Source of the DNA: Alphaproteobacteria bacterium
GTDB taxonomy: Bacteria; Pseudomonadota; Alphaproteobacteria; CAAHEQ01; UBA3637
Assembly (NCBI GenBank): GCA_015062245.1
Contig: SUVA01000003.1
Location: forward strand, 21,372-85,371
Direction of reading: 5' to 3'
Length of the DNA stretch: 64,000 bases
Position numbers and translations under genes: made by a program. The notes below the pieces were generated by a model, which was not told the DNA's origin, did no database searches, and saw nothing but the letters and a program-made list of their open reading frames with translations. This document shows, piece by piece, positions 9,768 through 27,893 of the stretch (position 1 is the stretch's first letter; each line of letters begins with the position of its first letter).

Positions 9768-12700
9768 ATGTCTAAAACAAAGATGTTAGATGCAAACGAA
9801 GCCGCCGCTGCGGTGGCTTATAAGCTGAATGAAATGTCTATCATTTATCCGATTACCCCGTCTTCACCGATGGGTGAATGGGCCGATGCTTGGGCAGCCG
9901 GTAAGCAAACAAATATCTGGGGAAAAGTTCCGGAAGTATTGGAAATGCAATCTGAGGCCGGTGCTATTGGTGCCGTTCATGGTGCTTTGCAGGCTGGTTC
10001 TATGACCACAACATATACAGCTTCTCAGGGCTTGTTGTTGATGATTCCCAATATGTATAAAATTGCCGGTGAATTGATGCCGTTTGTGATGCATGTGGCC
10101 GCCCGTACAGTTGCCGGTCATGCTTTGTCCATCTTTGGTGATCATTCTGACGTGATGGCCTGTCGTCAAACAGGTTTTGCCATGTTGGCTTCCAATTCAG
10201 TTCAAGAAGCCCATGATATGGCTGCCGTGGCCCAAATGTCCACTTATTTATCACGCATTCCTTTTTTGCATTTCTTTGATGGTTTCCGTACATCTCATGA
10301 AATCAATAAAATCAATATGATGAGTGATGATGATTTGCGTGCTTTAATGGCCGATATCCCGACAGATTTTACCGGTAAAAACGCTTTGACACCGGATAAT
10401 CCTTCCGTACGTGGTACAGCTCAAAACCCGGATGTGTTCTTCCAAATTAAGGAAGCTGCCAATAAGTATTATCAAGCTTGCCCTGAAATTGTTGAAAAAT
10501 GTATGCGTAAGTTTGAACAAGTTATTGGTCGTTCTTATCATATTGTGGAATATTTTGGTGCACAAGATGCCGAACACGTTGTTGTGGCTATGGGTTCAGG
10601 TATTGAAACATTACAAGAAACAGTTAAAGCTTTGAATGCCAATGGTGGAAAATATGGTGTTGTGGCGGTTCGTTTGTATCGTCCTTTCCCATCCAAAGCT
10701 TTTGTGGATGCCTTGCCCGCTACTGTTAAATATATCACCGTTTTGGATAGAACAAAAGAAGCCGGCTCTGTTGGTGAACCGTTGTATTTGGATGTTGTTT
10801 CTGCATTGGCCGAAGCTGCTGTCAATGGTCATGTTATGCCAAAAGTTTTGGGCGGTCGTTATGGTATTTCTTCAAAAGAATTTACACCCGCAATGGCCAA
10901 GGCTGTTTTTGAAAACAAAGAAAAGAATCACTTTACCGTTGGTATCAATGATGACGTAACTCACGCATCTTTGGCTTATGATGCCACCTTTAATACAGAA
11001 GGTGATGATGTCAGCCGTTGTATTTTCTTTGGTTTGGGTTCCGATGGTACAGTGGGTGCCAATAAAAACTCAATCAAAATTATTGCAGATAATGATGATA
11101 CATATGGTCAGGCTTATTTCGTGTACGATTCCAAAAAATCAGGTGCGATGACAACATCTCACTTGCGTTTTGGTAAAAATCCGATTAAAGCCCCTTATTT
11201 AATTACATCTGCCAATTTTGTGGCCTGTCACCATGAACCATTCTTGCATAAGATTGATTTGTTGGCTGTTGCTGCCCCGAAATCAGTGTTTTTGTTGAAT
11301 ACACAAACACCCATTGAACACGTTTGGGATAGTTTGCCACAAGAAGTACAACAGGAAATCATTGCCAAAGAAATTAAGATGTATGCTATTGATGCTGTGG
11401 CCGTTGCCCAAAAAACAGGCATGGGTCGTCGTATCAATACAATTATGCAGGCTTGTTTCTTTGCTATTTCCGGTGTTTTACCCAAAGATGTGGCTATTGA
11501 AAAGATTAAAGCGGCCATTACGAAAACATATATGCGTAAAGGTCAGGAAGTTGTTGATGCCAATATCAAAGCGGTTGATGCCACTTTGGATCATTTGCAT
11601 GAAGTTCAAATCGGTCAAGCCAATTCAACCATTCGCCGTCAACCCGGTATTCCGGCTTATGCCCCTGAATTGTTGCAAAAAGTAACCGGTGCCATTATTG
11701 AAGGCCGTGGTGAAGAATTACCTGTCTCAGCCTTTGAATGGACAGTTGATGGTAAATGGCCAACCGATACGGCAAAATATGAAAAACGTCGTGTGGCAAC
11801 ACAAATTCCGTGCTGGGATCCTGAAACATGTATCCAATGTGGTAAATGTATTTCAGTGTGTCCGCATGCCGCTATCCGTGCCAAAGTGGCAAAAGCCGAA
11901 GCCTTAGCAAATGCACCGGCCGGCTTTAAGTCTGCTGATTACAAAACAGCTGAATTTAAAGGTGATAAGTTTGTGATTCAAGTGGCACCGGAAGATTGCA
12001 CAGGATGTACTTTGTGTACTCAGGTTTGTCCGATGAAGGCCAAAAACACATTGGTAATGGAACCGGTTGAAAAGAATTTGGATAAAGAAATCAAAAACTT
12101 TGATTTCTTTGAAAAATTGCCGGATGCCGATCGTTCAAAATTGAACACAAAGATGATTAAGAGCGTGGCCTTAATGCGTCCGTTGTTTGAATTCTCGGGT
12201 GCTTGTGCCGGTTGTGGTGAAACACCATATGTTAAAATGATGACACAATTGTTTGGTGATCGTTTGTTGGTTGCCAATGCCACAGGTTGTTCGTCTATTT
12301 ATGGTGGCAACTTGCCAACAACACCATATGCCAAAAACAAAGATGGACGTGGTCCGGCTTGGGCAAACTCTTTGTTTGAAGATAATGCTGAATTTGGTTT
12401 GGGTATGCGTACTTCCGTTGATTCCAAAACAGAATTTGCCATTCAATTGTTGTCTGAATTAAAAGACAGCATCGGTGTTGAATTGGTGGATGCCATTTTG
12501 AATGCTGACCAAACAACAGAACAGGGTATTGCCGAACAACGTGCCCGTGTTGCCTCTTTAAAAGAAAAATTGGCAGGTTTGTCTGGTGAAAAAGTTAAAT
12601 TACTTGTTGAACATGCCGATTACTTGGTCAAAAAATCCGTTTGGATTTTGGGCGGTGACGGTTGGGCCTATGATATCGGCTACGGTGGATTGGACCACGC

Positions 12701-18728: not shown

Positions 18729-19919
18729 TTATGGATCCCGACAAATGGCGGAGTTGTTGAGGTAGCCACTGTAGCGAGAGTCGTCGAGGACAGCACCGCT
18801 GTTGTGGGAGACAAAACGCGTGCCACAGGAACCTGACTTGCTATTATCCGCTAGCCAAAGACTACCAGATTCTCCAAAGACATCTGTACTTCTAATCGCT
18901 ACATTTGTGGCCGAACAATCACTATCTGATCCGCCATTGCAAATACAAGGTTTCGTTGCGTAATTTGAGTGTGAACTGTTAAAATAACAGTGTGTATTCG
19001 TGCCACTGTCCGCCAGCCCTAAATCAGACATAGTCACAAGTTGTTTGCCATGCGCTTGACACAGGTTGGACGCACTCCACCAGTTCATTGTGCCTGAACT
19101 CTTATACACCGTTAAAGCACCACCGGGCAGGTTGAGGGTTTTGACCGTAAAATCATTTGTATCATCCAATTCTCCCTTATCCGTACACGTTCCCGTCCCC
19201 GGATTCGTACAACTACCATCACTGAACTTGCAGTATTTTGTCGTATCCACATTGCCTTCGGCATCCTTACAATCGCCGTTCTGGGTACACCCACTCGTTG
19301 GTTTGGCGCAGATGTATGTTGAGGTATTCGTCCCCTTTGCACAATACGTCCCTTCGGCGCAACATTCTGTCCCGCACATAAAGACACCGTTCGGACATTT
19401 GCATTCGCCGTGGAAACACTTTAGTCCGTCATCACATGTTACATTCTTACAGGCTGGGTCAAACTTTCCCCCTGTTGGGCTTTTTTCGCCTTCGGCCTCT
19501 GTGGTTGCCAAGTTTTTGTAATAAGTGATGGTAGCATTGCCTGATTCATCACAAACAACATCACGCACCATACCGCCTTTGGAATTTTTCATTTGTGTGC
19601 AAACATCTTTATCAATGCCCGATAGTGTTAAATTAAATTGAGTGCCGTTATCGGTAAGAGTGGTTGCATAGCCTGAGTTGGCAAAATCGGTGATTGTTGA
19701 TGGTAATTTCCCGTCATTGGTCATGGCATAAGCCGACACCGTTGTTGCCATCATGGATGCTTTATGCAAGGCCTCATTGGCTTTGTGTTTTTCCACCGCT
19801 TTGGAATAGGCCGATATGCCACCAACACTCAACACGCCCACAATGGCCAGCACGCCCAGCATTTCAACCATACTGCGCCCCTTTTGACTTCTTTTATCAT
19901 TTTTGTTTGTTTTATTCAT
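18729..19919 (-). CDS. Type IV pilin-like N-terminus fused to Cys-rich EGF-like repeats and a C-type-lectin-like C-terminal domain (396 aa); candidate adhesin
   Basis: Class-III signal-like N-terminus QKG|RSMVEMLGVLAIVGVLSVGGISAY with Glu at +5 and a hydrophobic helix; central CxxGxC repeats (CDDGLKCFHGECKCPNGVFMCGTECCAEGTYC); C-terminal WWSASNLCQAHGKQLVTMSDL resembles a CTLD start. Confidence 0.5.
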   Translation of the reverse strand: MNKTNKNDKRSQKGRSMVEMLGVLAIVGVLSVGGISAYSKAVEKHKANEALHKASMMATTVSAYAMTNDGKLPSTITDFANSGYATTLTDNGTQFNLTLSGIDKDVCTQMKNSKGGMVRDVVCDESGNATITYYKNLATTEAEGEKSPTGGKFDPACKNVTCDDGLKCFHGECKCPNGVFMCGTECCAEGTYCAKGTNTSTYICAKPTSGCTQNGDCKDAEGNVDTTKYCKFSDGSCTNPGTGTCTDKGELDDTNDFTVKTLNLPGGALTVYKSSGTMNWWSASNLCQAHGKQLVTMSDLGLADSGTNTHCYFNSSHSNYATKPCICNGGSDSDCSATNVAIRSTDVFGESGSLWLADNSKSGSCGTRFVSHNSGAVLDDSRYSGYLNNSAICRDP

Positions 19920-20170: not shown

Positions 20171-20199
20171 TGACATTATAAAATCATTTGTGTAAAATA
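20171..20199 (+). promoter_or_regulatory. Near-consensus sigma70 promoter (TTGACA-17-TAAAAT) immediately upstream of the tRNA-His 5' remnant (probable native tRNA-His promoter)
   Basis: ttgacattataaaatcatttgtgtaaaat read directly; it drives only the truncated tRNA fragment at 20216. Confidence 0.4.
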
Positions 20200-20209
20200 T
20201 AAACTATTC

Positions 20210-20256
20210 ACCAGATGGCGGATGTAGCTCAGTTGGTTAGAGCGCTGGTTTGTGGT
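20210..20256 (+). repeat. Distal attachment-site repeat: 47-nt exact copy of the 5' half of tRNA-His (leader through anticodon loop)
   Basis: accagatggcggatgtagctcagttggttagagcgctggtttgtggt is identical to 27809-27855; the sequences diverge right after the anticodon GTG. Confidence 0.7.
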
Positions 20257-20619
20257 TCCGCTTTTCAACTTCCAAATTTTCTGATAAACACCGCATAAAA
20301 GACAAGAGCAGAATTCTTGTATTGAATTTGTTATAAGTCCTGTCATTATTGTTCTATCTTGAAATTTGAATGAATGGAAAGGTATCTTTTGGGCGCTTAA
20401 ATTTTGGAAATTCAGAACGCCTAAAAGCTCAAACCTCATTTTCTATCCCTAAACTCTCCCTAAACGATGGAATAATCACTTTTGTAAATGGGAAAAAGGA
20501 CTTTTTTCTTTGGCATTTACATTAGCCTCATTAGCCGCATTTGCCCCTTACATTAATATTATGCCCGAAATTTTTGAAAATGTCAAAAGAAATTAAGGGG
20601 TTATTTAAAAATAAACGCG

Positions 20620-21108
20620 TTATTTTTCACGAAATGATAGCATAAAATCCAAATTTCTTTTTGTAATCCAAAAAGAAAAAAGTAATCCTAAGAATGAAAT
20701 AAGTGCATAATAGGAAGAGATAACTAAACATACTTTCCATTCTGTTGTGGAAAACAAAAAGGCAAAAATTATTGATAGTAAGCAGGTCATAATTGTCCAT
20801 GATAGAAAATTGAGTAAATTTTTCAATGGTCGATATTGTTCTTTTTTCCAGCCATCTTTGTATTCTGATTTTAAGTAATTGGTGTAATCTTCTTTATCAT
20901 ATAATTTTTCTTTCATATGTGGTATTAGGAAACTTTGCATTGTAAATAAGATGGAGGCAATAGCAAAATATGCAGAAATCCAACTTCCTGTTCCATTAGG
21001 ATCTTTTGGAACTAATGGAATGAGGGTCAATACAAAAGATAATTCCTTTACTTTGAAAGAAATAACCAAAGGAATAATAAAAGTAAATATTGTAAAAAAT
21101 ACCTTCAT
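20620..21108 (-). CDS. Small integral membrane protein (162 aa, ~4 TM), island cargo
   Basis: Four hydrophobic segments (FFTIFTFIIPLVISF, ISAYFAIASILFTMQSFLI, LSWTIMTCLLSIIFAFLF, LVISSYYALISFLGLLFSFWI); 3 nt downstream of the 292-aa gene. Confidence 0.5.
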   Translation of the reverse strand: MKVFFTIFTFIIPLVISFKVKELSFVLTLIPLVPKDPNGTGSWISAYFAIASILFTMQSFLIPHMKEKLYDKEDYTNYLKSEYKDGWKKEQYRPLKNLLNFLSWTIMTCLLSIIFAFLFSTTEWKVCLVISSYYALISFLGLLFSFWITKRNLDFMLSFREK

Positions 21109-21111
21109 TTT

Positions 21112-21990
21112 CTAAATAATCCCTAAATCTCTACAGATAACATTTGATTTTACAAAATCTAACATATGAACAATAGTTGGATGGGTACTTAACTCTTCTG
21201 TATTAAATTTTTTTAATTCCCGTGTTACGTCATCGTAATCATAAGATGTTAATGGCCTAAAAATATTGTCTAAATTTATAACTTCCCTTTCTCCTTCTTC
21301 ATTTTTCCCAACCACTTTCAATTTTTTAGTACCTAATTCTTTTAAGTCAAGAATTTTAGGGATTATATCAGATAAAGGAGCCTTCCTTTTAAAAATTATT
21401 TGTTTTTGTTCGGATTTTACAAAATCAGGAGTAAAAATAGAACGTTTTGTAGATTGCTCTAAATACGATATTGAAGTGATTGAAAAAAACCTATTCAATG
21501 CCATAGAAGCTTCTTCAGCCTTTATTATTTGGATGCAAGAAATCTTATTTTTTCTCTTAAAGCTCAGTGACGAGCTGTCGTAGCCTTTTAGTGAAACAAA
21601 ATCATCAAAAAACTTTCTTAAAATTTTTTCTAACACAGATAATGAAGCAGAATTAGCATATGTCAACCATATCCCTGATGTAGTATTTTTATTCAAAATG
21701 AAAAAGTTGTATTCCGCACCATCTTTGATTTCGGCTATTTCTGTAGAATATCCCCCATTAGGATTTACTACTACTCTGCAATGTGCTGAGTAGTCTCGAG
21801 AAGAAAAAAGTAGTCCGGCGTAATAAGAGGAGGAAGCAACTGGTTGAATAAAAAGATTTCTCTTTTTTTTACAGATATCAATTGGTCCTTCTTTTTGAGA
21901 AGTTATATAATCAAAAAGATCTGAAATGGAAAAATCGATATCTTTTTGCTTTTTTAAAATAATTTTAAAGGGATATGCGTTTATATTCAT
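21112..21990 (-). CDS. Hypothetical cytoplasmic protein (292 aa), island cargo, no recognisable domain
   Basis: Long ORF co-directional with and between the XRE gene and the membrane-protein gene; composition typical of the element (very AT-rich, Lys/Ser/Phe-rich). Confidence 0.45.
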   Translation of the reverse strand: MNINAYPFKIILKKQKDIDFSISDLFDYITSQKEGPIDICKKKRNLFIQPVASSSYYAGLLFSSRDYSAHCRVVVNPNGGYSTEIAEIKDGAEYNFFILNKNTTSGIWLTYANSASLSVLEKILRKFFDDFVSLKGYDSSSLSFKRKNKISCIQIIKAEEASMALNRFFSITSISYLEQSTKRSIFTPDFVKSEQKQIIFKRKAPLSDIIPKILDLKELGTKKLKVVGKNEEGEREVINLDNIFRPLTSYDYDDVTRELKKFNTEELSTHPTIVHMLDFVKSNVICRDLGII

Positions 21991-22050: not shown

Positions 22051-22389
22051 TTATTTCATTTCCAAAAGGGCCTCAATCTGTTTAAGGGCGGTTTTGAGTG
22101 TCTTTTCATCCTGTCCTTCTAATAATCGGGTAATAGTCTTTAATGTGTCTGAATGTGGTTTGTTCTGTGTGGATATATCAGTCAATAAATCTTGAACGGG
22201 GACATTGAGTGCGTTAGCAAAGGAAAGAAGTGTTGTAATTTTGGGGTCACTGAGTCCACGTTCTACATTTGAAATGGTATTTATCATTTTACCGGATACT
22301 TCGGCAAATTCCTCTTGTGAAAGTCTTTTTTGTTTGCGTAAAACGGCAATACGTTTACCAAGCGTTTGTAAAAATACTTTATTTGTCAT
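22051..22389 (-). CDS. XRE-family HTH transcriptional regulator (Cro/cI-like)
   Basis: LRKQKRLSQEEFAEVSGKMINTISNVERGLSDPKITTLLSFANALNVPVQDLL = classic HTH_XRE; start placed at MTNKVFLQ (the upstream in-frame extension lacks an RBS). Confidence 0.7.
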   Translation of the reverse strand: MTNKVFLQTLGKRIAVLRKQKRLSQEEFAEVSGKMINTISNVERGLSDPKITTLLSFANALNVPVQDLLTDISTQNKPHSDTLKTITRLLEGQDEKTLKTALKQIEALLEMK

Positions 22390-22465
22390 AATACCTCTTT
22401 TGTTATGGTAGTATTTTCCTATTTTGCTGTGTAAAAGACCATAACGGTAAAATGTGTATTTTGGC

Positions 22466-22494
22466 TTGACATTTCTAAAAATACATATTATACT
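22466..22494 (+). promoter_or_regulatory. Sigma70 promoter (TTGACA-17-TATACT) for the PD-(D/E)xK-like gene
   Basis: cttgacatttctaaaaatacatattatact read directly. Confidence 0.45.
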
Positions 22495-22519
22495 GTGTTT
22501 ATTGATTACAATAAACACA
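22494..22519. promoter_or_regulatory. Perfect 11-4-11 palindromic operator (TGTGTTTATTG-atta-CAATAAACACA) between -10 and RBS
   Basis: Exact inverted repeat read directly; positioned to block transcription; the divergent XRE repressor is the obvious candidate binder. Confidence 0.45.
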
Positions 22520-22531
22520 TGGGAGTATGAA

Positions 22532-23467
22532 ATGAACGGTCCAAACATCTTCGATTATGCTACCAGTGAGCTCTCTCAAGATGCTTTTTTGTGTTATCTG
22601 TTAGCCTTTGGAAAAGAAAAATATAAAATGGATTTTCCGAAAGAGTATATGCTTGCTCATAAGTTTCTTGCAAAATGTGGTATTGATGAAAAAGAGGAAA
22701 TATTGTCCGTTGGACAACAGGTGGAACATATTGATGTTTTAATTATTACAACTTCCCACATTCTTATTATTGAAGATAAAACTTATACTGATGAACATGA
22801 TGATCAAATAATTCGTTATGTGAAAAATATGAGGAAATCTGAAGAAAAATTTTTAAATGATAAAAAAATTAAGGTATGTTTTTTAAAAACAGGCGATTAT
22901 GTTAAATCCTATTCTTCAAGTGATGAAAGTGTTTTACAAAATAAAGATTGTTGTTCTTTAAGACGTAAAAATTTATTGGAATTACTAAAGGATTATTATA
23001 AGTGTAATTTAGTATTTGAAATGTTTTATAAACGACTTCTTTCCGTTGAAGAAGCTATAGAACAATGTGATAGTGAAAATATATTTGATTGGAATCGCTA
23101 TAAATGGTTCGATTTCCTTTATAATACTTTAATTGAGAAAAAGAAAGTTTTTGACATAAAATGGGTTCATAATCCTAATGGCGGTTTTTATGGTTGTTGG
23201 TTTGGTTCTCATAAACTAGGAGAAATTGAGAAGTATAAACAAATTGAAATTCATTTCAATGAAAAGGGAACAGAATTTGTAGATTTGTGCTTAAAATGTT
23301 CATCTGAAAGTAAAGAGAAAACTCAGAAATATAAATCAGATATGGAAAAGTGGCAAAAGGAATCTGGTTTTAATCGTCCTGATCGTTGGCGTATTGGTCG
23401 GACAACAACCTATGCCACAAAACAAGCAATCAATGTTCGGGATATTCAAAACTTTATCAAAAAATAA
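22532..23467 (+). CDS. PD-(D/E)xK nuclease-like protein (312 aa), island cargo
   Basis: E...D...E-x-K arrangement (SELSQDAF ... HIDVLIITTSHILIIEDKTY) with the hydrophobic-strand context typical of restriction-endonuclease-fold nucleases; GGGAG RBS 6 nt before the ATG. Confidence 0.4.
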   Translation: MNGPNIFDYATSELSQDAFLCYLLAFGKEKYKMDFPKEYMLAHKFLAKCGIDEKEEILSVGQQVEHIDVLIITTSHILIIEDKTYTDEHDDQIIRYVKNMRKSEEKFLNDKKIKVCFLKTGDYVKSYSSSDESVLQNKDCCSLRRKNLLELLKDYYKCNLVFEMFYKRLLSVEEAIEQCDSENIFDWNRYKWFDFLYNTLIEKKKVFDIKWVHNPNGGFYGCWFGSHKLGEIEKYKQIEIHFNEKGTEFVDLCLKCSSESKEKTQKYKSDMEKWQKESGFNRPDRWRIGRTTTYATKQAINVRDIQNFIKK

Positions 23468-23496
23468 CAACTGAAAGGAAAGGAAGATGGCAAAAG

Positions 23497-23616
23497 TATA
23501 TGTAACACAGTATGATTATCAAGCAGATTTAAAAGTTTATAAAGTACAAAATGACTATCAGGCAAAATGGCAAACAAGCAATCCTTTTATTAGTCGATTA
23601 GGATAATATAACTCAT
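23497..23616 (+). CDS. Small ORF (39 aa, MAKVYVTQYDYQADLKVYKVQNDYQAKWQTSNPFISRLG) with strong RBS
   Basis: aggaaaggaag RBS then ATG; below the ORF-track cutoff; followed by a terminator. Confidence 0.25.
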
Positions 23617-23652: not shown

Positions 23653-23688
23653 AGGATAGGGCGGAAAAACTCCGCCCTTTTTCTTTCT
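23653..23688. terminator. Bidirectional terminator (gggcggaaaaactccgccc flanked by T-runs) between convergent island genes
   Basis: Read directly. Confidence 0.45.
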
Positions 23689-25925
23689 TACACGGAATCA
23701 AAAACTTCTGGATTTACTATATAAAGTGTTTTTTGACGACCCCTTGATTCCCCTGGTCGAGATATTTTTTTAGTTTTTAACCATCCATATTTTATCAAAA
23801 TAGAGGTTGCTTTTTCCGCTTGTTCCTTTCGCCGAATTCCAGGAACAACTGCGTTGTAATAGATATCCCTTAAGGTAAAGCTCTCAATTTTGTTGTTTAA
23901 GATATATTGAGCTAATTTTCTGGCTTCTTGCTGATATTCTGGCGCCATATAAATTCCATAAACACGTTTTGCCATAGGAAATAAGTACTGTTCATAAAAA
24001 TTTATAGCAGTATTAAGAGCATTTAACCCAATGAAATCAGGCTCTGGATTTTCGCTATCTGCCCACCATAAATATTCAAACATCAAACTTAAACGAACAA
24101 CAACACCCTGTCCTTTATTCAAGAAAAAACCCAATTTTTCATCTTCCCGTTCAATCGCTTGTGCAAAATGGACGTGTTTTAAGTACCACTGATTAAACAT
24201 TTCCTGAGCCTCATCAGAAAATTTTAATTGCTTTTTGGGATTCTCAGCATTATCCCCATAAGGATTGACTAAATTGAATAATTTTTTAAGTGCACGGAAC
24301 ACTTTTTCGTTATTCGGAGCTACTTTGGGGATAGCAGGGGCTACAACCTCTGGATAAGCCCAAAGAAAACGAGGGACAAGCCCGTCTTCGGCGTTACCCA
24401 AAAAGGCGTCTATGACCCTTTTAGGCTGGATAGTGCCAAAAATTGAAATAAGCAAATGTGGTACTTCAATTCTATCTTCCCCAAATTTTACACGATCGGA
24501 AGAATAATATTTACCATTATAGGTTTCAAGCCAAAAACTTTTTTCAGCGTTGCCACTGGTGTATCGATTCATTCCTGCTAACCATCCATACAGCTCGTCT
24601 CGAAAAACGATTGCCCCAGTTGTATTGTTTTGTAAGTTTTGAAGAAGTGCTTCCTGCGTTGTATCACAAAAACAAAAACGATATGATTGTGGTTTTGGAG
24701 GCTTATTCAAATTATCGGGAATCGTTTGTTTTTTATCTGGATTTTTTTTGATATCCTTATACCAGTTCTTTAACTTTTTTTCATAAGCTATATTTTCACC
24801 TTTCCAAACGTTATAAGCCCTCTCAAACTCTGGCTTACGTGATTTTTCCAAATCACATAAAATGCTTTTTATAGGACTGATAGTCGGCGTTTTTCTTGAG
24901 CTCGGATCTCCAACAATTCCCATAAAAAAACAGGGGTATTCTACAAAACCAGGCCATGGGGAAAGGCTGCGGGCTAATCCCATACAGGCACCCGTTGCTG
25001 CTATTAAAGAAAATCCAACATAGTCAACTGCTGCATTACAACTGGCAGCTGTTTCCACTACCCATTCTTCCATAGTTTGAAAACAATCGGTTTTCATCCT
25101 TGGAGCAGGTTCAATAATTTTTTCCTTTAAAATGGATAAATCAAGTTCTTGGAAATCTGGATTATCCAAGGTTTCAGAAAAAGAGATTGAATTTTCTAAT
25201 GTTCTTTCTACTTCTTCAATTTCAAGTCCACTTTGTAAAGCTGACTTAATAATTTTGTTATATATATTTGCCATATTTAAACTCCTTTCTTTGGCAAGTT
25301 GTTGGATGCGAATTGATTTTCGCAAAAGTGTATCATTGCGTTTACCCTCTGGGGCATTTGAAATGTCTTCCAAAAGTGCTGATATATCGTTAATTCTGGC
25401 GTTTTTGCCTGTTATAATTTCTAGCAACCATTCAGGCGCTTCTGGAAAAGTTAAATCATTAGGATTTACATTTTCCCAATGATATTGGTTACCGTTTTCA
25501 TGAACGGAAAAGGGGGCAACAATATATCCCCCGTCTGCACGTATATCAATATGCGGGGCAATTTTACTGGCGCTTGACCTAATAGTTATATTTTCGGGGT
25601 ATTTAAAATAAAGGTGTTTTCCTCGCCCTGTTAAAACGGCTGGGGCATTTAATTTACCATACTCTTTTTCCAAAAGTTGAAGTGATTCAAATCCTTCTTG
25701 TTCGTCAATATCAACTACGAAAATACCATTTTCTTCCCCAGTTGGGAGACCAATATTACAAGGGGAAAATTTTTCACTCCATTCCGTTATTTGTTTTAAG
25801 TCTGTTGTGGCTCCCTTAAAACCTGTTTTAATAAGGGGAGCCTTTCCACGATATTTCACGGGGAAGACTTTCATATTTAACCGAACATATTGTTTGGCGA
25901 TGTTATAAAAGTTGTTTTCAATCAT
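23688..25925 (-). CDS. Bifunctional DNA primase/polymerase (AEP Prim-Pol N-terminal domain) with C-terminal P4-alpha-like/DUF3987-type region; element replication protein
   Basis: VVDIDEQEGFESLQLLEKEYGKLNAPAVLTGRGKHLYFKYPENITIRSSASKIAPHIDIRADGGYIVAPFSVHENGNQYHWEN matches the Prim-Pol signature (lDiD...tpsGGrHlyf...G.DvRgdGGYvvaPpSvh.sG..Y.w); 745 aa. Confidence 0.75.
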   Translation of the reverse strand: MIENNFYNIAKQYVRLNMKVFPVKYRGKAPLIKTGFKGATTDLKQITEWSEKFSPCNIGLPTGEENGIFVVDIDEQEGFESLQLLEKEYGKLNAPAVLTGRGKHLYFKYPENITIRSSASKIAPHIDIRADGGYIVAPFSVHENGNQYHWENVNPNDLTFPEAPEWLLEIITGKNARINDISALLEDISNAPEGKRNDTLLRKSIRIQQLAKERSLNMANIYNKIIKSALQSGLEIEEVERTLENSISFSETLDNPDFQELDLSILKEKIIEPAPRMKTDCFQTMEEWVVETAASCNAAVDYVGFSLIAATGACMGLARSLSPWPGFVEYPCFFMGIVGDPSSRKTPTISPIKSILCDLEKSRKPEFERAYNVWKGENIAYEKKLKNWYKDIKKNPDKKQTIPDNLNKPPKPQSYRFCFCDTTQEALLQNLQNNTTGAIVFRDELYGWLAGMNRYTSGNAEKSFWLETYNGKYYSSDRVKFGEDRIEVPHLLISIFGTIQPKRVIDAFLGNAEDGLVPRFLWAYPEVVAPAIPKVAPNNEKVFRALKKLFNLVNPYGDNAENPKKQLKFSDEAQEMFNQWYLKHVHFAQAIEREDEKLGFFLNKGQGVVVRLSLMFEYLWWADSENPEPDFIGLNALNTAINFYEQYLFPMAKRVYGIYMAPEYQQEARKLAQYILNNKIESFTLRDIYYNAVVPGIRRKEQAEKATSILIKYGWLKTKKISRPGESRGRQKTLYIVNPEVFDSV

Positions 25926-25951: not shown

Positions 25952-26365
25952 TTATTCTTCACAATTAAAAAGTCTATCCAAATAGCTACAAGCTGCTTCA
26001 ATGGTGTAATATACTTTTTTGTTTACACACACGTATTGGGAATGATCATCTCTTGTAATAACTCCTTCCAGCATAGAATCTTTATTTCGTAAAGTATTGC
26101 AATTTAGAAATCCGCAAACTTCACAGAATTTTGTTCTTGCGATTGTTTCACCATATGTCTTGATTTTTGCCTTTAATTTGTATAACAAATTTGGGCTGAT
26201 ATAATTTTTGATCATTTTAAAGACCTTTGTTTTTAGGTTATGGGGATCCCAGATTAAAACCACTGTTTTTCTGTTCCCACCTAAAAACGCAGCAAATCTT
26301 ATTTTCACCTTTTTATTTTTATTTATTTTATAAGTTTTTGATTTTAAATAATTATATCTAATCAT
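25952..26365 (-). CDS. Hypothetical Cys-containing protein (137 aa) between integrase and primase
   Basis: ORF only; CEVCGFLNC ... CVNKK ... C pattern suggests a zinc ribbon; start overlaps integrase stop. Confidence 0.35.
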   Translation of the reverse strand: MIRYNYLKSKTYKINKNKKVKIRFAAFLGGNRKTVVLIWDPHNLKTKVFKMIKNYISPNLLYKLKAKIKTYGETIARTKFCEVCGFLNCNTLRNKDSMLEGVITRDDHSQYVCVNKKVYYTIEAACSYLDRLFNCEE

Positions 26366-27542
26366 TTTCTGACTCCGAATTGAGCGTGCGAACAGCTTTA
26401 CGCAAAGAATTATTGGATAAATGTGAATATCTGAGGGTCATGGAAATATCAGAATGCCCTAAAAGTTCTTTAACCACAAAAATAGAATTTCCTTTTTCCA
26501 CAAGGCGACTTGCATACGTATGTCTTAATGTGTGAAAGACAACCTTTTGCCGTCTATCAGTGATTCCCTGATTGAGGCCCAATTTTTTCACGGCTCTTTC
26601 ATAAGTTCTTGATACATGTTCAATTTTTTTACCATTTCGGCTTGGAAAAAGGTGTTGATTTGTTTCTTTGTTTGGAAGTTTTGAAACTTCTTCAAAAACA
26701 CGATCTGTCATAAAGGCAAAACGGTTTTTCTTGTTTTTTGTATCTTTTAGAGTGAATTCTTTTTGATTCAAATTGACATCCGCCCAAGTCAGATTAAAAA
26801 TTTCTCCTGCTCGTAATCCACAGTCTGCCGAAATTAGAGCCATTAAATATACTTCATAGCTTCTCTTTTTAAGTTCTGTAAATAGAGCTTCCAATTCTTC
26901 AGCTGTTAAATAGCGTATGCGCCGATTGTCTTCTTTTTTACATTTTATTTTTGACGCAGGATTTTCCAAGCCAAAGTATAAATTTTCTTTTTTTGCAAAA
27001 TTGAACACTTGGCGCATAAGGGCAATCGCATAATTTTGACTTCGGACAGATAGTTGTTGATCTGCCATTATATTTTGCACCCTAATGAGGCTATTGCGGC
27101 TTATTTTTTCTAAGGGTAAAGAGCCAAAATAAGGTTCAAGCCATTTTTTAAATAAAACAAGCTCTCTATCATTTGTACTCTTTTTATGATATATTTGGCA
27201 ATAAGGCATATAACAAAGAGAAAAGATTTCCCTAAAAGTTTTGCTTTGAATACAATTCCTCTTATTACGTTCAAGAAGTTCATTGTTTTTCTTTTGTTGT
27301 TGTTGGGCTATTTCTTTTAAAGAGAATGCTGTACCAGCTTTTATACGTTGTTTTAAATCCCCTAATATATGATAAGCCTTTTCAGCTGTCCAACCCAGCG
27401 ATTTAAAACCAATCGGTTCTTCGTATTGTTTACCATTAACAGTATAGCGGATTGAAAAATAAATATCTTTCTTTCCTTGAGAGACACATTCTCTTTTTCT
27501 TACCCCTGGAAAATTTTTTGTCATTTTTACACTTCCTTTCAT
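26358..27542 (-). CDS. int: Tyrosine-type site-specific integrase
   Basis: Catalytic region HTLRHTYASRLVEKGNSIFVVKELLGHSDISMTLRYSHL (R...HxxR...Y); N-terminal SAM-like/arm-binding region; lies 270 nt from tRNA-His, reading away from it. Confidence 0.85.
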   Translation of the reverse strand: MKGSVKMTKNFPGVRKRECVSQGKKDIYFSIRYTVNGKQYEEPIGFKSLGWTAEKAYHILGDLKQRIKAGTAFSLKEIAQQQQKKNNELLERNKRNCIQSKTFREIFSLCYMPYCQIYHKKSTNDRELVLFKKWLEPYFGSLPLEKISRNSLIRVQNIMADQQLSVRSQNYAIALMRQVFNFAKKENLYFGLENPASKIKCKKEDNRRIRYLTAEELEALFTELKKRSYEVYLMALISADCGLRAGEIFNLTWADVNLNQKEFTLKDTKNKKNRFAFMTDRVFEEVSKLPNKETNQHLFPSRNGKKIEHVSRTYERAVKKLGLNQGITDRRQKVVFHTLRHTYASRLVEKGNSIFVVKELLGHSDISMTLRYSHLSNNSLRKAVRTLNSESEND

Positions 27543-27769
27543 GTGTTTTTTTGTTTGACAAAATTATCCCATATTTAAGAGAGAAAAACACGTCACTCAA
27601 TGCGTCACTCAGCGTTTTTCGTAAGTAATACATAACAAGTTTGATAAATATTTTAGGACAGCTTAATTTTTTAATCCCTAAATACCCCCTAAATTTTTGA
27701 GAATACATTTTAAAAATCTTCAAAAATAAAGGAAAATAGGTTTGAGAGGATAAAAATAGATTTTTTACT

Positions 27770-27798
27770 TGACTTTTGGTAAAAAATCTGCGAAAATA
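27770..27798 (+). promoter_or_regulatory. Weaker promoter-like sequence (TTGACT-17-GAAAAT) driving the intact tRNA-His; sits inside the element side of the repeat
   Basis: acttgacttttggtaaaaaatctgcgaaaat read directly. Confidence 0.3.
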
Positions 27799-27815
27799 AG
27801 GCTTATCAACCAGAT

Positions 27816-27893
27816 GGCGGATGTAGCTCAGTTGGTTAGAGCGCTGGTTTGTGGTACCAGATGTCGTCGGTTCGAGTCCGATCTTCCGCCCCA
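27816..27893 (+). tRNA. tRNA-His (anticodon GTG) with G-1 and encoded CCA
   Basis: Cloverleaf folded by eye: G-1, acceptor GCGGATG/CTTCCGC, D-arm GTAGCTCAGTTGGTTAGAGC, anticodon loop TTGTGGT, T-arm GTCGG-TTCGAGT-CCGAT, discriminator C, CCA. Confidence 0.85.

Follow-up and report, generated by a model that had tools for sequence, protein, structure and literature searches.

The 64-kb window analysed here (64,000 nucleotides of contig SUVA01000003.1, assembly GCA_015062245.1, Alphaproteobacteria bacterium) carries a 7.6-kb integrative island located in tRNA-His and endowed with an integrase and a PrimPol gene; within this island a gene for a predicted PD-(D/E)xK nuclease is divergently oriented with respect to the gene of a small XRE-family repressor. 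The nuclease open reading frame (ORF; 22532-23467, forward strand) is preceded by the ribosome-binding site (RBS) GGGAG at 22521-22525, starts with ATG at 22532 and ends with its stop codon at 23467; it encodes 311 amino acids and not the 312 of a preliminary description of the locus, which had otherwise placed the gene correctly. The repressor gene (22051-22389, reverse strand, 112 aa) is divergent from it, as had been proposed, across a 142-bp spacer, and it is in this spacer that the promoter of the nuclease operon and the putative repressor sites are found.

The 311-aa protein consists of two domains, a PD-(D/E)xK core spanning approximately residues 1-150 and an alpha/beta domain spanning approximately residues 150-311. 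In a Pfam profile search the core matched PF14281 (PDDEXK_4) at residues 62-144 with 25.5 bits, above the gathering score of 22.3, and the same family is precomputed for nearly all the listed homologues of the protein. In the alignment of 54 homologues the residues E13, D17, Q63, D68, D82, K83, Q92, and Y96 do not vary and E81 is at least 90% conserved; in particular, the catalytic set of the PD-(D/E)xK site is kept, with a glutamate on helix 1, an aspartate on strand 2, and the (D/E)xK motif on strand 3. The conserved residues follow the order E...D...ExK...QxxxY, which we take to be the pattern of the RecB/Cas4-like members of the superfamily. The AlphaFold2 model of the whole protein (pLDDT 91.6, pTM 0.84) shows an alpha-beta-beta-beta-alpha-beta core made up of helix 16-25, strands 57-64, 67-73, and 76-83, helix 90-102, and strand 112-119, the order of helices and strands around the catalytic residues being canonical. 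The E...D...ExK motif to which the preliminary description had pointed (HIDVLI and IIEDK) is present and conserved in the 54 homologues, and the nuclease assignment that it had drawn from this motif is borne out by the family match above the gathering score, the conservation of the catalytic residues, and the predicted core fold. The product is a PD-(D/E)xK nuclease of PF14281 with an active-looking site, its activity being a prediction from the sequence and the model.

Comparison of the full model with solved structures by Foldseek gave the nickase N.BspD6I as the best match in the Protein Data Bank (PDB), with a weak E-value of 2e-3, followed by Avs4, Cdn1, Can2, Cap4, and EcoO109I; among viral structures the best matches were phage proteins annotated as "PD-(D/E)XK nuclease superfamily" (E ~6e-4). 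All these matches are weak (TM ~0.25 or less) and all are nucleases. The search of all PDB chains by sequence with the family profile returned nothing at E <= 10, and the nuclease had no match in the NCBIfam and PHROGs searches. The C-terminal 160 residues, modelled alone, adopt a confident fold (pLDDT 95.4) that has no significant solved relative, the best being DR_1245 (E = 0.016, TM 0.37-0.39), which gives no functional lead. One homologous locus (L028, 3567-4124) has a free-standing 185-aa ORF equivalent to the C-terminal domain alone, located between a WYL regulator and a full-length homologue, which suggests that this domain can act as an independent unit.

The family is large: a word-indexed search recovered 456 homologues of the 311-aa protein, while an exhaustive profile search recovered 3,776 cluster representatives (1,094 with E <= 1e-30), the majority of which are 310-350 aa long and align end to end. 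An identical copy of the protein is present in a metagenome-assembled genome (MAG) labelled Alphaproteobacteria bacterium. A scan of one genome per species provided 80 loci with a nuclease homologue, including 31 close homologues (38-66% identity, at least 48% in 28 of them) that come almost entirely from MAGs of gut and rumen Alphaproteobacteria; the host of the island is a gut or rumen alphaproteobacterium. Four homologues were found in 72,556 plasmids, the functional context of these four records being not clear. A phage origin was considered and rejected, since tblastn against 50,697 phage genomes found no homologue of the nuclease and the viral contigs of IMG/VR contained no relatives of the XRE protein.

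Shedu/DUF4263, Cap4, and NucS, the families suggested by the preliminary description, gave no match at E <= 0.1 in Pfam or PADLOC, and the profiles of other named defence nucleases did not match either. The only library match besides PF14281 is PDC-S26 of PADLOC (E = 1e-6), in which residues 47-131 align with profile positions 77-164 of 413, so that the 85-residue nuclease core alone is covered; a true PDC-S26 member aligns at positions 2-382 of 389 with E = 4e-47. BLASTP of the nuclease against a bona fide PDC-S26 member gave a best E-value of 0.49, and a Psychrobacter homologue compared with the PDC-S26 protein encoded near it gave 1.2. Membership in PDC-S26 was thus rejected, the match being limited to the core and devoid of pairwise similarity.

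The nuclease operon is preceded by a sigma-70-type promoter on the forward strand (22466-22494), which lies where the preliminary description had put it and matches the consensus at 11 of 12 positions in a promoter scan: the -35 hexamer TTGACA occupies 22466-22471 and, after a 17-nt spacer, the -10 hexamer TATACT occupies 22489-22494. The perfect 11-4-11 palindrome described together with it is likewise present at 22494-22519, with the arms TGTGTTTATTG (22494-22504) and CAATAAACACA (22509-22519), 100% complementary, on either side of atta. Promoter-like sites are 38 in the 8-kb region against 31.4 +/- 5.6 in shuffles, and perfect inverted repeats with 11-nt arms and loops of up to 10 nt are 3 in the window against 0.7 expected, with 44% of Markov shuffles containing at least one; the expected number within the 142-bp spacer, scaled from the window-wide count, is ~0.0015. 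Since promoter and palindrome are each near chance in the window, the case for their function rests on the comparison with relatives. The window-wide count also returned a second perfect palindrome, AAAGAAATCAAA-aac-TTTGATTTCTTT, at 12084-12110. A role of the 22494-22519 palindrome in the RNA was discarded because transcription is expected to start at ~22500-22502, inside the left arm, leaving only a 4-bp hairpin; the Rfam scan of the island matched only the tRNA.

For this comparison the XRE-nuclease spacers of ten diverged loci were aligned; a second search, in which metagenomes were queried with the XRE protein, supplied 25 further loci, and the statistics of dyads, scored out of 10, were computed on 24 distinct XRE intergenic regions with shuffled controls. 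Invariant positions in the ten spacers are TTGA of the -35, TAnAnT of the -10, and the dinucleotides CA (22484-22485) and TG (22496-22497) that flank the -10. These define a conserved operator, O_B (ACATATTATACTGTGT, 22483-22498), with the consensus ACAyATTAnAnTGTGT, centred on the -10 and representing a putative site for an XRE dimer. O_B is found at the -10 with a score of at least 8/10 in 23 of the 24 regions, whichever gene is located downstream, and its column counts are nearly invariant. Overall, the pattern ACACA-N6-TGTGT at 8/10 or better has 55 matches in the 24 regions against 5.9 +/- 2.7 in shuffles (maximum 14), and the promoter at the chosen site has TTGACA at 17 nt in 11 regions and at least a 5/6 match at 16-17 nt in 20. 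A second dyad, O_A (TCCTATTTTGCTGTGT, 22417-22432), lies upstream, 28-43 nt from the XRE start codon; it reads TCACA-N6-TGTGT in most relatives and has a variant left half in the window, and its position scores at least 8/10 in 16 of the 24 regions and, by direct reading, 7/10 in the window. Between the two, upstream of the -35, a lone TGTGT half-site on the forward strand (22453-22457) corresponds to the invariant columns T67-T71 of the alignment.

The palindrome can be read in the light of these dyads. The left arm, which supplies the right half of O_B, is conserved, whereas the right arm, a further inverted half-site, is conserved only in the nearest relatives: L026, where the left arm is missing, has an identical copy and L001, L081, and L002 have similar ones, while ten further XRE-linked loci have none. 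In four of the 24 regions the corresponding pattern TGTGT-N16-ACACA scores 10/10, namely in the window, in L001, in L081, and, with N15 as the spacer, in L084. The half-sites of the palindrome are oriented opposite to those of the conserved N6 dyad, and therefore a dimer that fits O_B cannot pair the two arms. The earlier proposal of an operator was right in kind, as dyads conserved with the XRE gene overlap the promoter and the putative repressor site with them, but the site is the 16-bp O_B and not the 26-bp palindrome, an offset of ~16 bp. A possible third dyad, O_C (ACACATGGGAGTATGA, 22515-22530), covers the RBS and scores 8/10 in the window, L001, and L081, its equivalent in L026 being ACACAAAGGAATGTGA (9/10); dyads of 8/10 are expected by chance ~0.25 times per region, and that the right arm of the palindrome is the left half of O_C is put forward as a hypothesis only. 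The sub-lineage of the window has extra putative repressor half-sites between the -10 and the RBS. From the conservation of the dyads we conclude, by inference, that the XRE protein recognises TGTGT/ACACA half-sites ~11 bp apart and occludes the -10 of the divergent promoter.

The whole cassette, which includes the XRE gene, O_A, the lone half-site, TTGAC(A/T), the 17-nt spacer, and O_B, is kept also when the divergent gene is not the nuclease; in its place are found a lipoprotein of 280 or 282 aa, a 238-aa protein together with a membrane protein, or a protein of 154 or 195 aa. It is kept as well for XRE proteins only 42% identical, beside chromosomal lipoprotein genes. As the same cassette drives unrelated genes in sister islands, the control belongs to the island and not specifically to the nuclease.

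The XRE protein has an N-terminal helix-turn-helix (HTH_3, E = 1.6e-14) and a conserved C-terminal helical region. Its PADLOC matches are HTH_VI, Control_protein (to E = 7e-8), and capH, the last end to end with E = 3.8e-7, and its nearest solved relatives are SinR, C.BclI, C.AhdI, DdrO, ImmR, and P22 C2. The segment SGKMINT(I/V)SN(I/V)ERG is nearly invariant in eight orthologues, and we take it to hold the putative recognition helix. A perfect TATAAT on the reverse strand (22487-22492) was rejected as the promoter of the XRE gene because it has no -35 and is not conserved as a promoter. Control of the CapK/CapS type is not applicable, as CapS is a STAS protein.

The preliminary description had also seen in the nuclease a possible addiction toxin held off by the repressor; the distribution of the two genes speaks against it. 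Among the 31 close homologues the XRE gene is adjacent in 9 and, in 3 more, lies at a distance of ~1 kb with a lipoprotein gene in between, whereas the remaining 19 have no XRE gene within ~6 kb; these XRE-less copies are preceded by unrelated DNA and keep all the catalytic residues. Conversely, the XRE-anchored islands with enough flanking sequence contain the nuclease in five cases (L081, L082, L083, L085, and L086) and lack it in six (L084, L087-L090, and L092). Nuclease and repressor, each found without the other, are independent modules, and the main requirement of a toxin-antitoxin pair is therefore gone; moreover, the two genes do not form one operon, being divergent on opposite strands. 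The intact copies without XRE argue, only indirectly, against toxicity of the unrepressed nuclease. A decayed mini-island consisting of XRE, nuclease, and DUF6150 genes is observed by tRNA-His between dnaX and dut (L001, 5517-7412; L081; L082), without integrase or PrimPol, and the three-gene module may be retained there by selection.

In a group of XRE-less sister islands (L013, 5825-6005; L003, L018, L020, L022, and L029) the nuclease gene is preceded by a conserved leader of ~180 nt with four predicted hairpins (minimum free energy -54 kcal/mol, z-score -4.9). The last hairpin is terminator-like and nested in a stem that pairs ACUCUCC with the Shine-Dalgarno sequence GGAGAGU; six closely related sequences show two compensatory pairs and one broken pair, the latter in a single sequence and loop-closing. 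The leader has no Rfam match, and its sequence suggests a possible cis-regulatory RNA by which the nuclease is kept off.

The mobile element assumed in the preliminary description is confirmed by the integrase, the PrimPol gene, and the duplication of the attachment site in tRNA-His. The left boundary is the leftover 5' 42 nt of the tRNA (20218-20259, forward strand), which belongs to a 66-nt direct repeat (20194-20259 and 27793-27858) made up of the first 42 nt of the tRNA and the bases upstream of it; the right boundary and attachment site is the intact tRNA-His (27817-27893, forward strand), identified by ARAGORN and by Rfam with 65 bits. The insertion is thus in the 5' half of the gene, with the integrase gene adjoining the intact tRNA, and the 5' half of the tRNA and its promoter are consequently provided anew by the island; integration at the 3' end of a tRNA gene is more usual. 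The end of the island that carries the integrase gene also has, just upstream of tRNA-His, a promoter-like site (TTGACT-17-GAAAAT with TG) whose -35, TTGACT, is enclosed by the perfect inverted repeat AGATTTTTTAC-N10-GTAAAAAATCT (27758-27789).

On the right side of the island three genes on the reverse strand converge on the nuclease operon: the 745-aa PrimPol-DUF3987 replication protein (23688-25925; Prim-Pol E = 6e-39, DUF3987 E = 3.5e-54), a 137-aa backbone protein (25952-26365) with weak orthologues in L011, L018, and L027, and a 394-aa tyrosine integrase (26358-27542; Phage_integrase E = 4.9e-33). The backbone of integrase and PrimPol is common to 11 of the 31 close-homologue loci, at tRNA-His or tRNA-Trp, and the PrimPol orthologues are 46-50% identical in 11 related loci. 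The nuclease gene is followed on the forward strand by a 39-aa DUF6150 remnant (23487-23606; E = 1.4e-4, against 4.5e-19 for the orthologue of L001) and by an intrinsic terminator (23658-23678) with an 8-bp stem, including six GC pairs, and a T run, which faces the 3' end of the PrimPol gene. The full-length DUF6150 gene, whose product has 93-96 aa and internal Y-x-A-D-h-K-h-Y repeats, belongs to the island backbone; in many sister islands, whether or not the nuclease is present, it lies at the end of the rightward operon nearest to PrimPol. On the other side, the XRE gene is followed on the same strand by a 292-aa protein (21112-21990) with a weak match to phrog_2802 (E = 4e-12) and by a 162-aa predicted membrane protein (20620-21108), the last gene of the XRE-side operon, a variable cargo gene with no firm family match. 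The 292-aa protein has only four homologue clusters among 5.8 billion proteins, and the pair also follows XRE in L084 (2993-4377) and L085 (2765-4134), with 41-45% identity; it is a candidate new two-gene defence system on the basis of its position. No capsid or packaging genes are found on the island. Just outside it, the N-terminus of a 396-aa protein (18729-19919, reverse strand) is prepilin-like (MVEMLGVLAIVGVLSVGG) and its long C-terminal region is rich in Cys; a 142-aa ORF of L005 has a near-identical N-terminus.

Defence genes recur around the homologues. In sister islands the XRE-side slot contains bSEFIR (9e-93), the Lamassu LmuB, PDC-M19A/B (1e-105 and 1e-99), or AbiLi (3e-84), and a second scan added a further bSEFIR and a restriction-enzyme-like gene; neighbours of other homologues include HEC-05 (1e-187), Orf5/HEC-06 (1e-101), LmuB, PDC-S18 (1e-123), and PDC-S23. 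A WYL-WCX regulator adjoins the nuclease homologue in ~18 of the 80 loci and is divergent from it in several; regulators of this class are known to co-localise with defence systems and to repress them, as reported for BrxR (PMC9122601) and CapW (PMC9122588). In Psychrobacter the order is WYL regulator, true PDC-S26 (4e-47), leucine-rich-repeat protein, and nuclease homologue.

From this context a single-gene, inducible defence nuclease is plausible, and the reading that we favour, if by a small measure, is that of a repressor-gated and replaceable cargo nuclease, made on derepression and most likely directed against invading phage or competing foreign DNA. The XRE gene sits between two cargo slots, one co-transcribed with it (the 292-aa and 162-aa genes) and one divergent (the nuclease and the DUF6150 remnant). 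An XRE dimer on O_B would block RNA polymerase at the -10 and keep the nuclease operon off, O_A beside the XRE start would provide autoregulation, and the palindrome would be a lineage-specific elaboration stretching the occupancy of the repressor from the -10 to the RBS. With a linker and a C-terminal oligomerisation region, the XRE protein appears to resemble SinR, DdrO, ImmR, and CapH. Repression would be absent when the island enters a naive cell or would be lifted by a signal, entry and phage infection being the candidates, and the nuclease thus produced would cleave DNA, with its C-terminal domain targeting or restraining it.

Several observations weigh against this reading. PF14281 was assigned the function "Unknown" in the 2012 classification of the PD-(D/E)XK superfamily (PMC3424549), a literature search found no characterisation of the family after that survey, and in PADLOC no validated defence model matches the full-length protein. 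The palindrome by itself is not statistically rare in the window, no convincing -35/-10 pair was found for the XRE gene's own promoter, and the island encodes no partner protease or sensor for the repressor (no protease of the CapP/ImmA type). Some homologues, for example in Bacillus-type genomes, lie among transporters and two-component genes. Finally, the promoter of the nuclease operon also serves DnaB_C and DnaQ-like genes in larger sister islands, so that the operon could serve the replication of the island itself.

This last point introduces an explanation that we regard as rather unlikely, in which the nuclease belongs to the life cycle of the island: XRE would be a master repressor like Stl or cI, and the nuclease, as the first gene of an induced early operon, would process DNA for replication or recombination or cut the genome of a helper phage or of the host at induction, with no role in standing immunity. 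The gene order agrees with it, as in sister islands the nuclease is followed by tightly spaced small genes and then by a DnaB_C helicase-like or DnaQ-like exonuclease gene towards PrimPol, the nuclease lies upstream of PrimPol and converges on it in 11 of 11 sister PrimPol loci and in the window, the XRE-controlled promoter of the larger sister islands looks like an early or replication promoter, and WYL-regulated versions (L050 and L056) share the same downstream genes. Nevertheless, the nuclease is dispensable for the element, given that six of the 11 XRE-anchored islands lack it and have lipoprotein or membrane genes instead; it survives by itself at chromosomal sites and in decayed islands that have neither integrase nor PrimPol (L001, L004, L005, and L012), and neither homologues in the 50,697 phage genomes nor a recombinase partner nearby were found. 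The two explanations overlap, as in both the nuclease is made on derepression.

The scheme of the preliminary description, in which one XRE dimer binds the 26-bp palindrome and the nuclease is a toxin or addiction factor, seems improbable. The perfect palindrome between the -10 and the RBS and the decayed island of L001, L081, and L082, which keeps XRE, nuclease, and DUF6150, are in its favour; however, the N16 geometry is confined to the four regions mentioned although the HTH segment of XRE is nearly unchanged, one dimer geometry cannot fit half-sites that face opposite ways, 19 of the 31 close homologues keep the catalytic residues with no XRE nearby, and the two genes are divergent, in a cassette that also controls lipoprotein genes that do not look toxic. 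Very improbable is an ordinary constitutive nuclease gene in which palindrome and promoter-like hexamers are due to chance in AT-rich DNA, as the near-chance counts of the window might suggest: hexamers and dyad are kept position by position in 24 diverged regions, and the dyads amount to ~9 times the shuffle expectation. A cargo nuclease under the probable control of the XRE repressor, carried by a small, satellite-like integrative island, conforms to a known pattern and contradicts no current understanding.

A broader proposal may be advanced tentatively, with more doubt than belief: the two-domain PF14281 family (~3,800 clusters at 50% identity) would be a single-gene anti-phage nuclease not yet recognised as such, with expression controlled independently in three ways according to lineage, by XRE operators on the -10, by a divergent WYL repressor, or by a structured leader that sequesters the Shine-Dalgarno sequence, and the XRE cassette would be the portable two-sided defence hotspot of minimal PrimPol satellites that form a new family among the Alphaproteobacteria of gut and rumen. 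Should the enzyme give protection against phages, the defence genes would gain a large family, whose thousands of clusters are labelled only "PD-(D/E)XK nuclease family protein", and the island would offer a compact model in which one small repressor presides over two exchangeable defence slots in poorly studied gut and rumen bacteria; if it serves only the life cycle of the island, the finding is routine. The operator consensus ACAyATTAnAnTGTGT makes the regulation directly testable.

The element can be compared with several known systems. The presence of a defence hotspot on small satellites is well established, having been described for PICMI (PMC10803314). The island resembles PICMI, P4-like satellites, and PICI in its small size, in the association of an integrase with a primase-type replicase, in the conserved insertion site, and in a slot of high turnover occupied by anti-phage systems; it differs from them in the PrimPol-DUF3987 replicase, in the insertion in the 5' half of tRNA-His, in the two cargo slots that flank one XRE gene, and in the gut or rumen alphaproteobacterial host. 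The nuclease shares with PDC-S26 and Shedu-type nucleases the single-gene organisation, the PD-(D/E)xK core, and the neighbourhood of defence islands; in contrast, only the 85-residue core resembles PDC-S26, and the C-terminal domain, with no solved relative, is distinct.

As regards the regulation, the arrangement recalls BrxR and CapW, which are WYL proteins, and CapH-CapP, in that an adjacent repressor has dyads, here with inferred binding, over the promoter of a potentially harmful defence gene; the repressor is divergent from the nuclease in the window and in several homologue loci, and distant homologues of the nuclease adjoin WYL-WCX regulators. The XRE protein is nevertheless small and lacks the WYL sensor domain of BrxR and CapW, and the protease of CapH-CapP has no counterpart on the island. 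Small XRE regulators adjoining a nuclease gene are also found in restriction-modification systems as C proteins, and C.BclI and C.AhdI are among the nearest structures; here, however, the regulator is divergent from the nuclease instead of being upstream in the same operon, no island ORF has the methyltransferase domain of such systems, and the operator sequence is unlike C-boxes. The switches of phages 434, P22, and lambda offer a further parallel, with a dimer-type HTH_3 protein, 16-bp operators whose half-sites are ~11 bp apart (ACACA-N6-TGTGT, which we liken to the 434 operator ACAA-N6-TTGT), and several operators in a divergent intergenic region, one of them over the -10; P22 C2 is, moreover, a relative of the XRE protein detectable by sequence. 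Unlike these switches, the island has no Cro-like second regulator and its repressor has no peptidase domain for RecA-type cleavage, and the genes under its control are cargo and not lytic functions.

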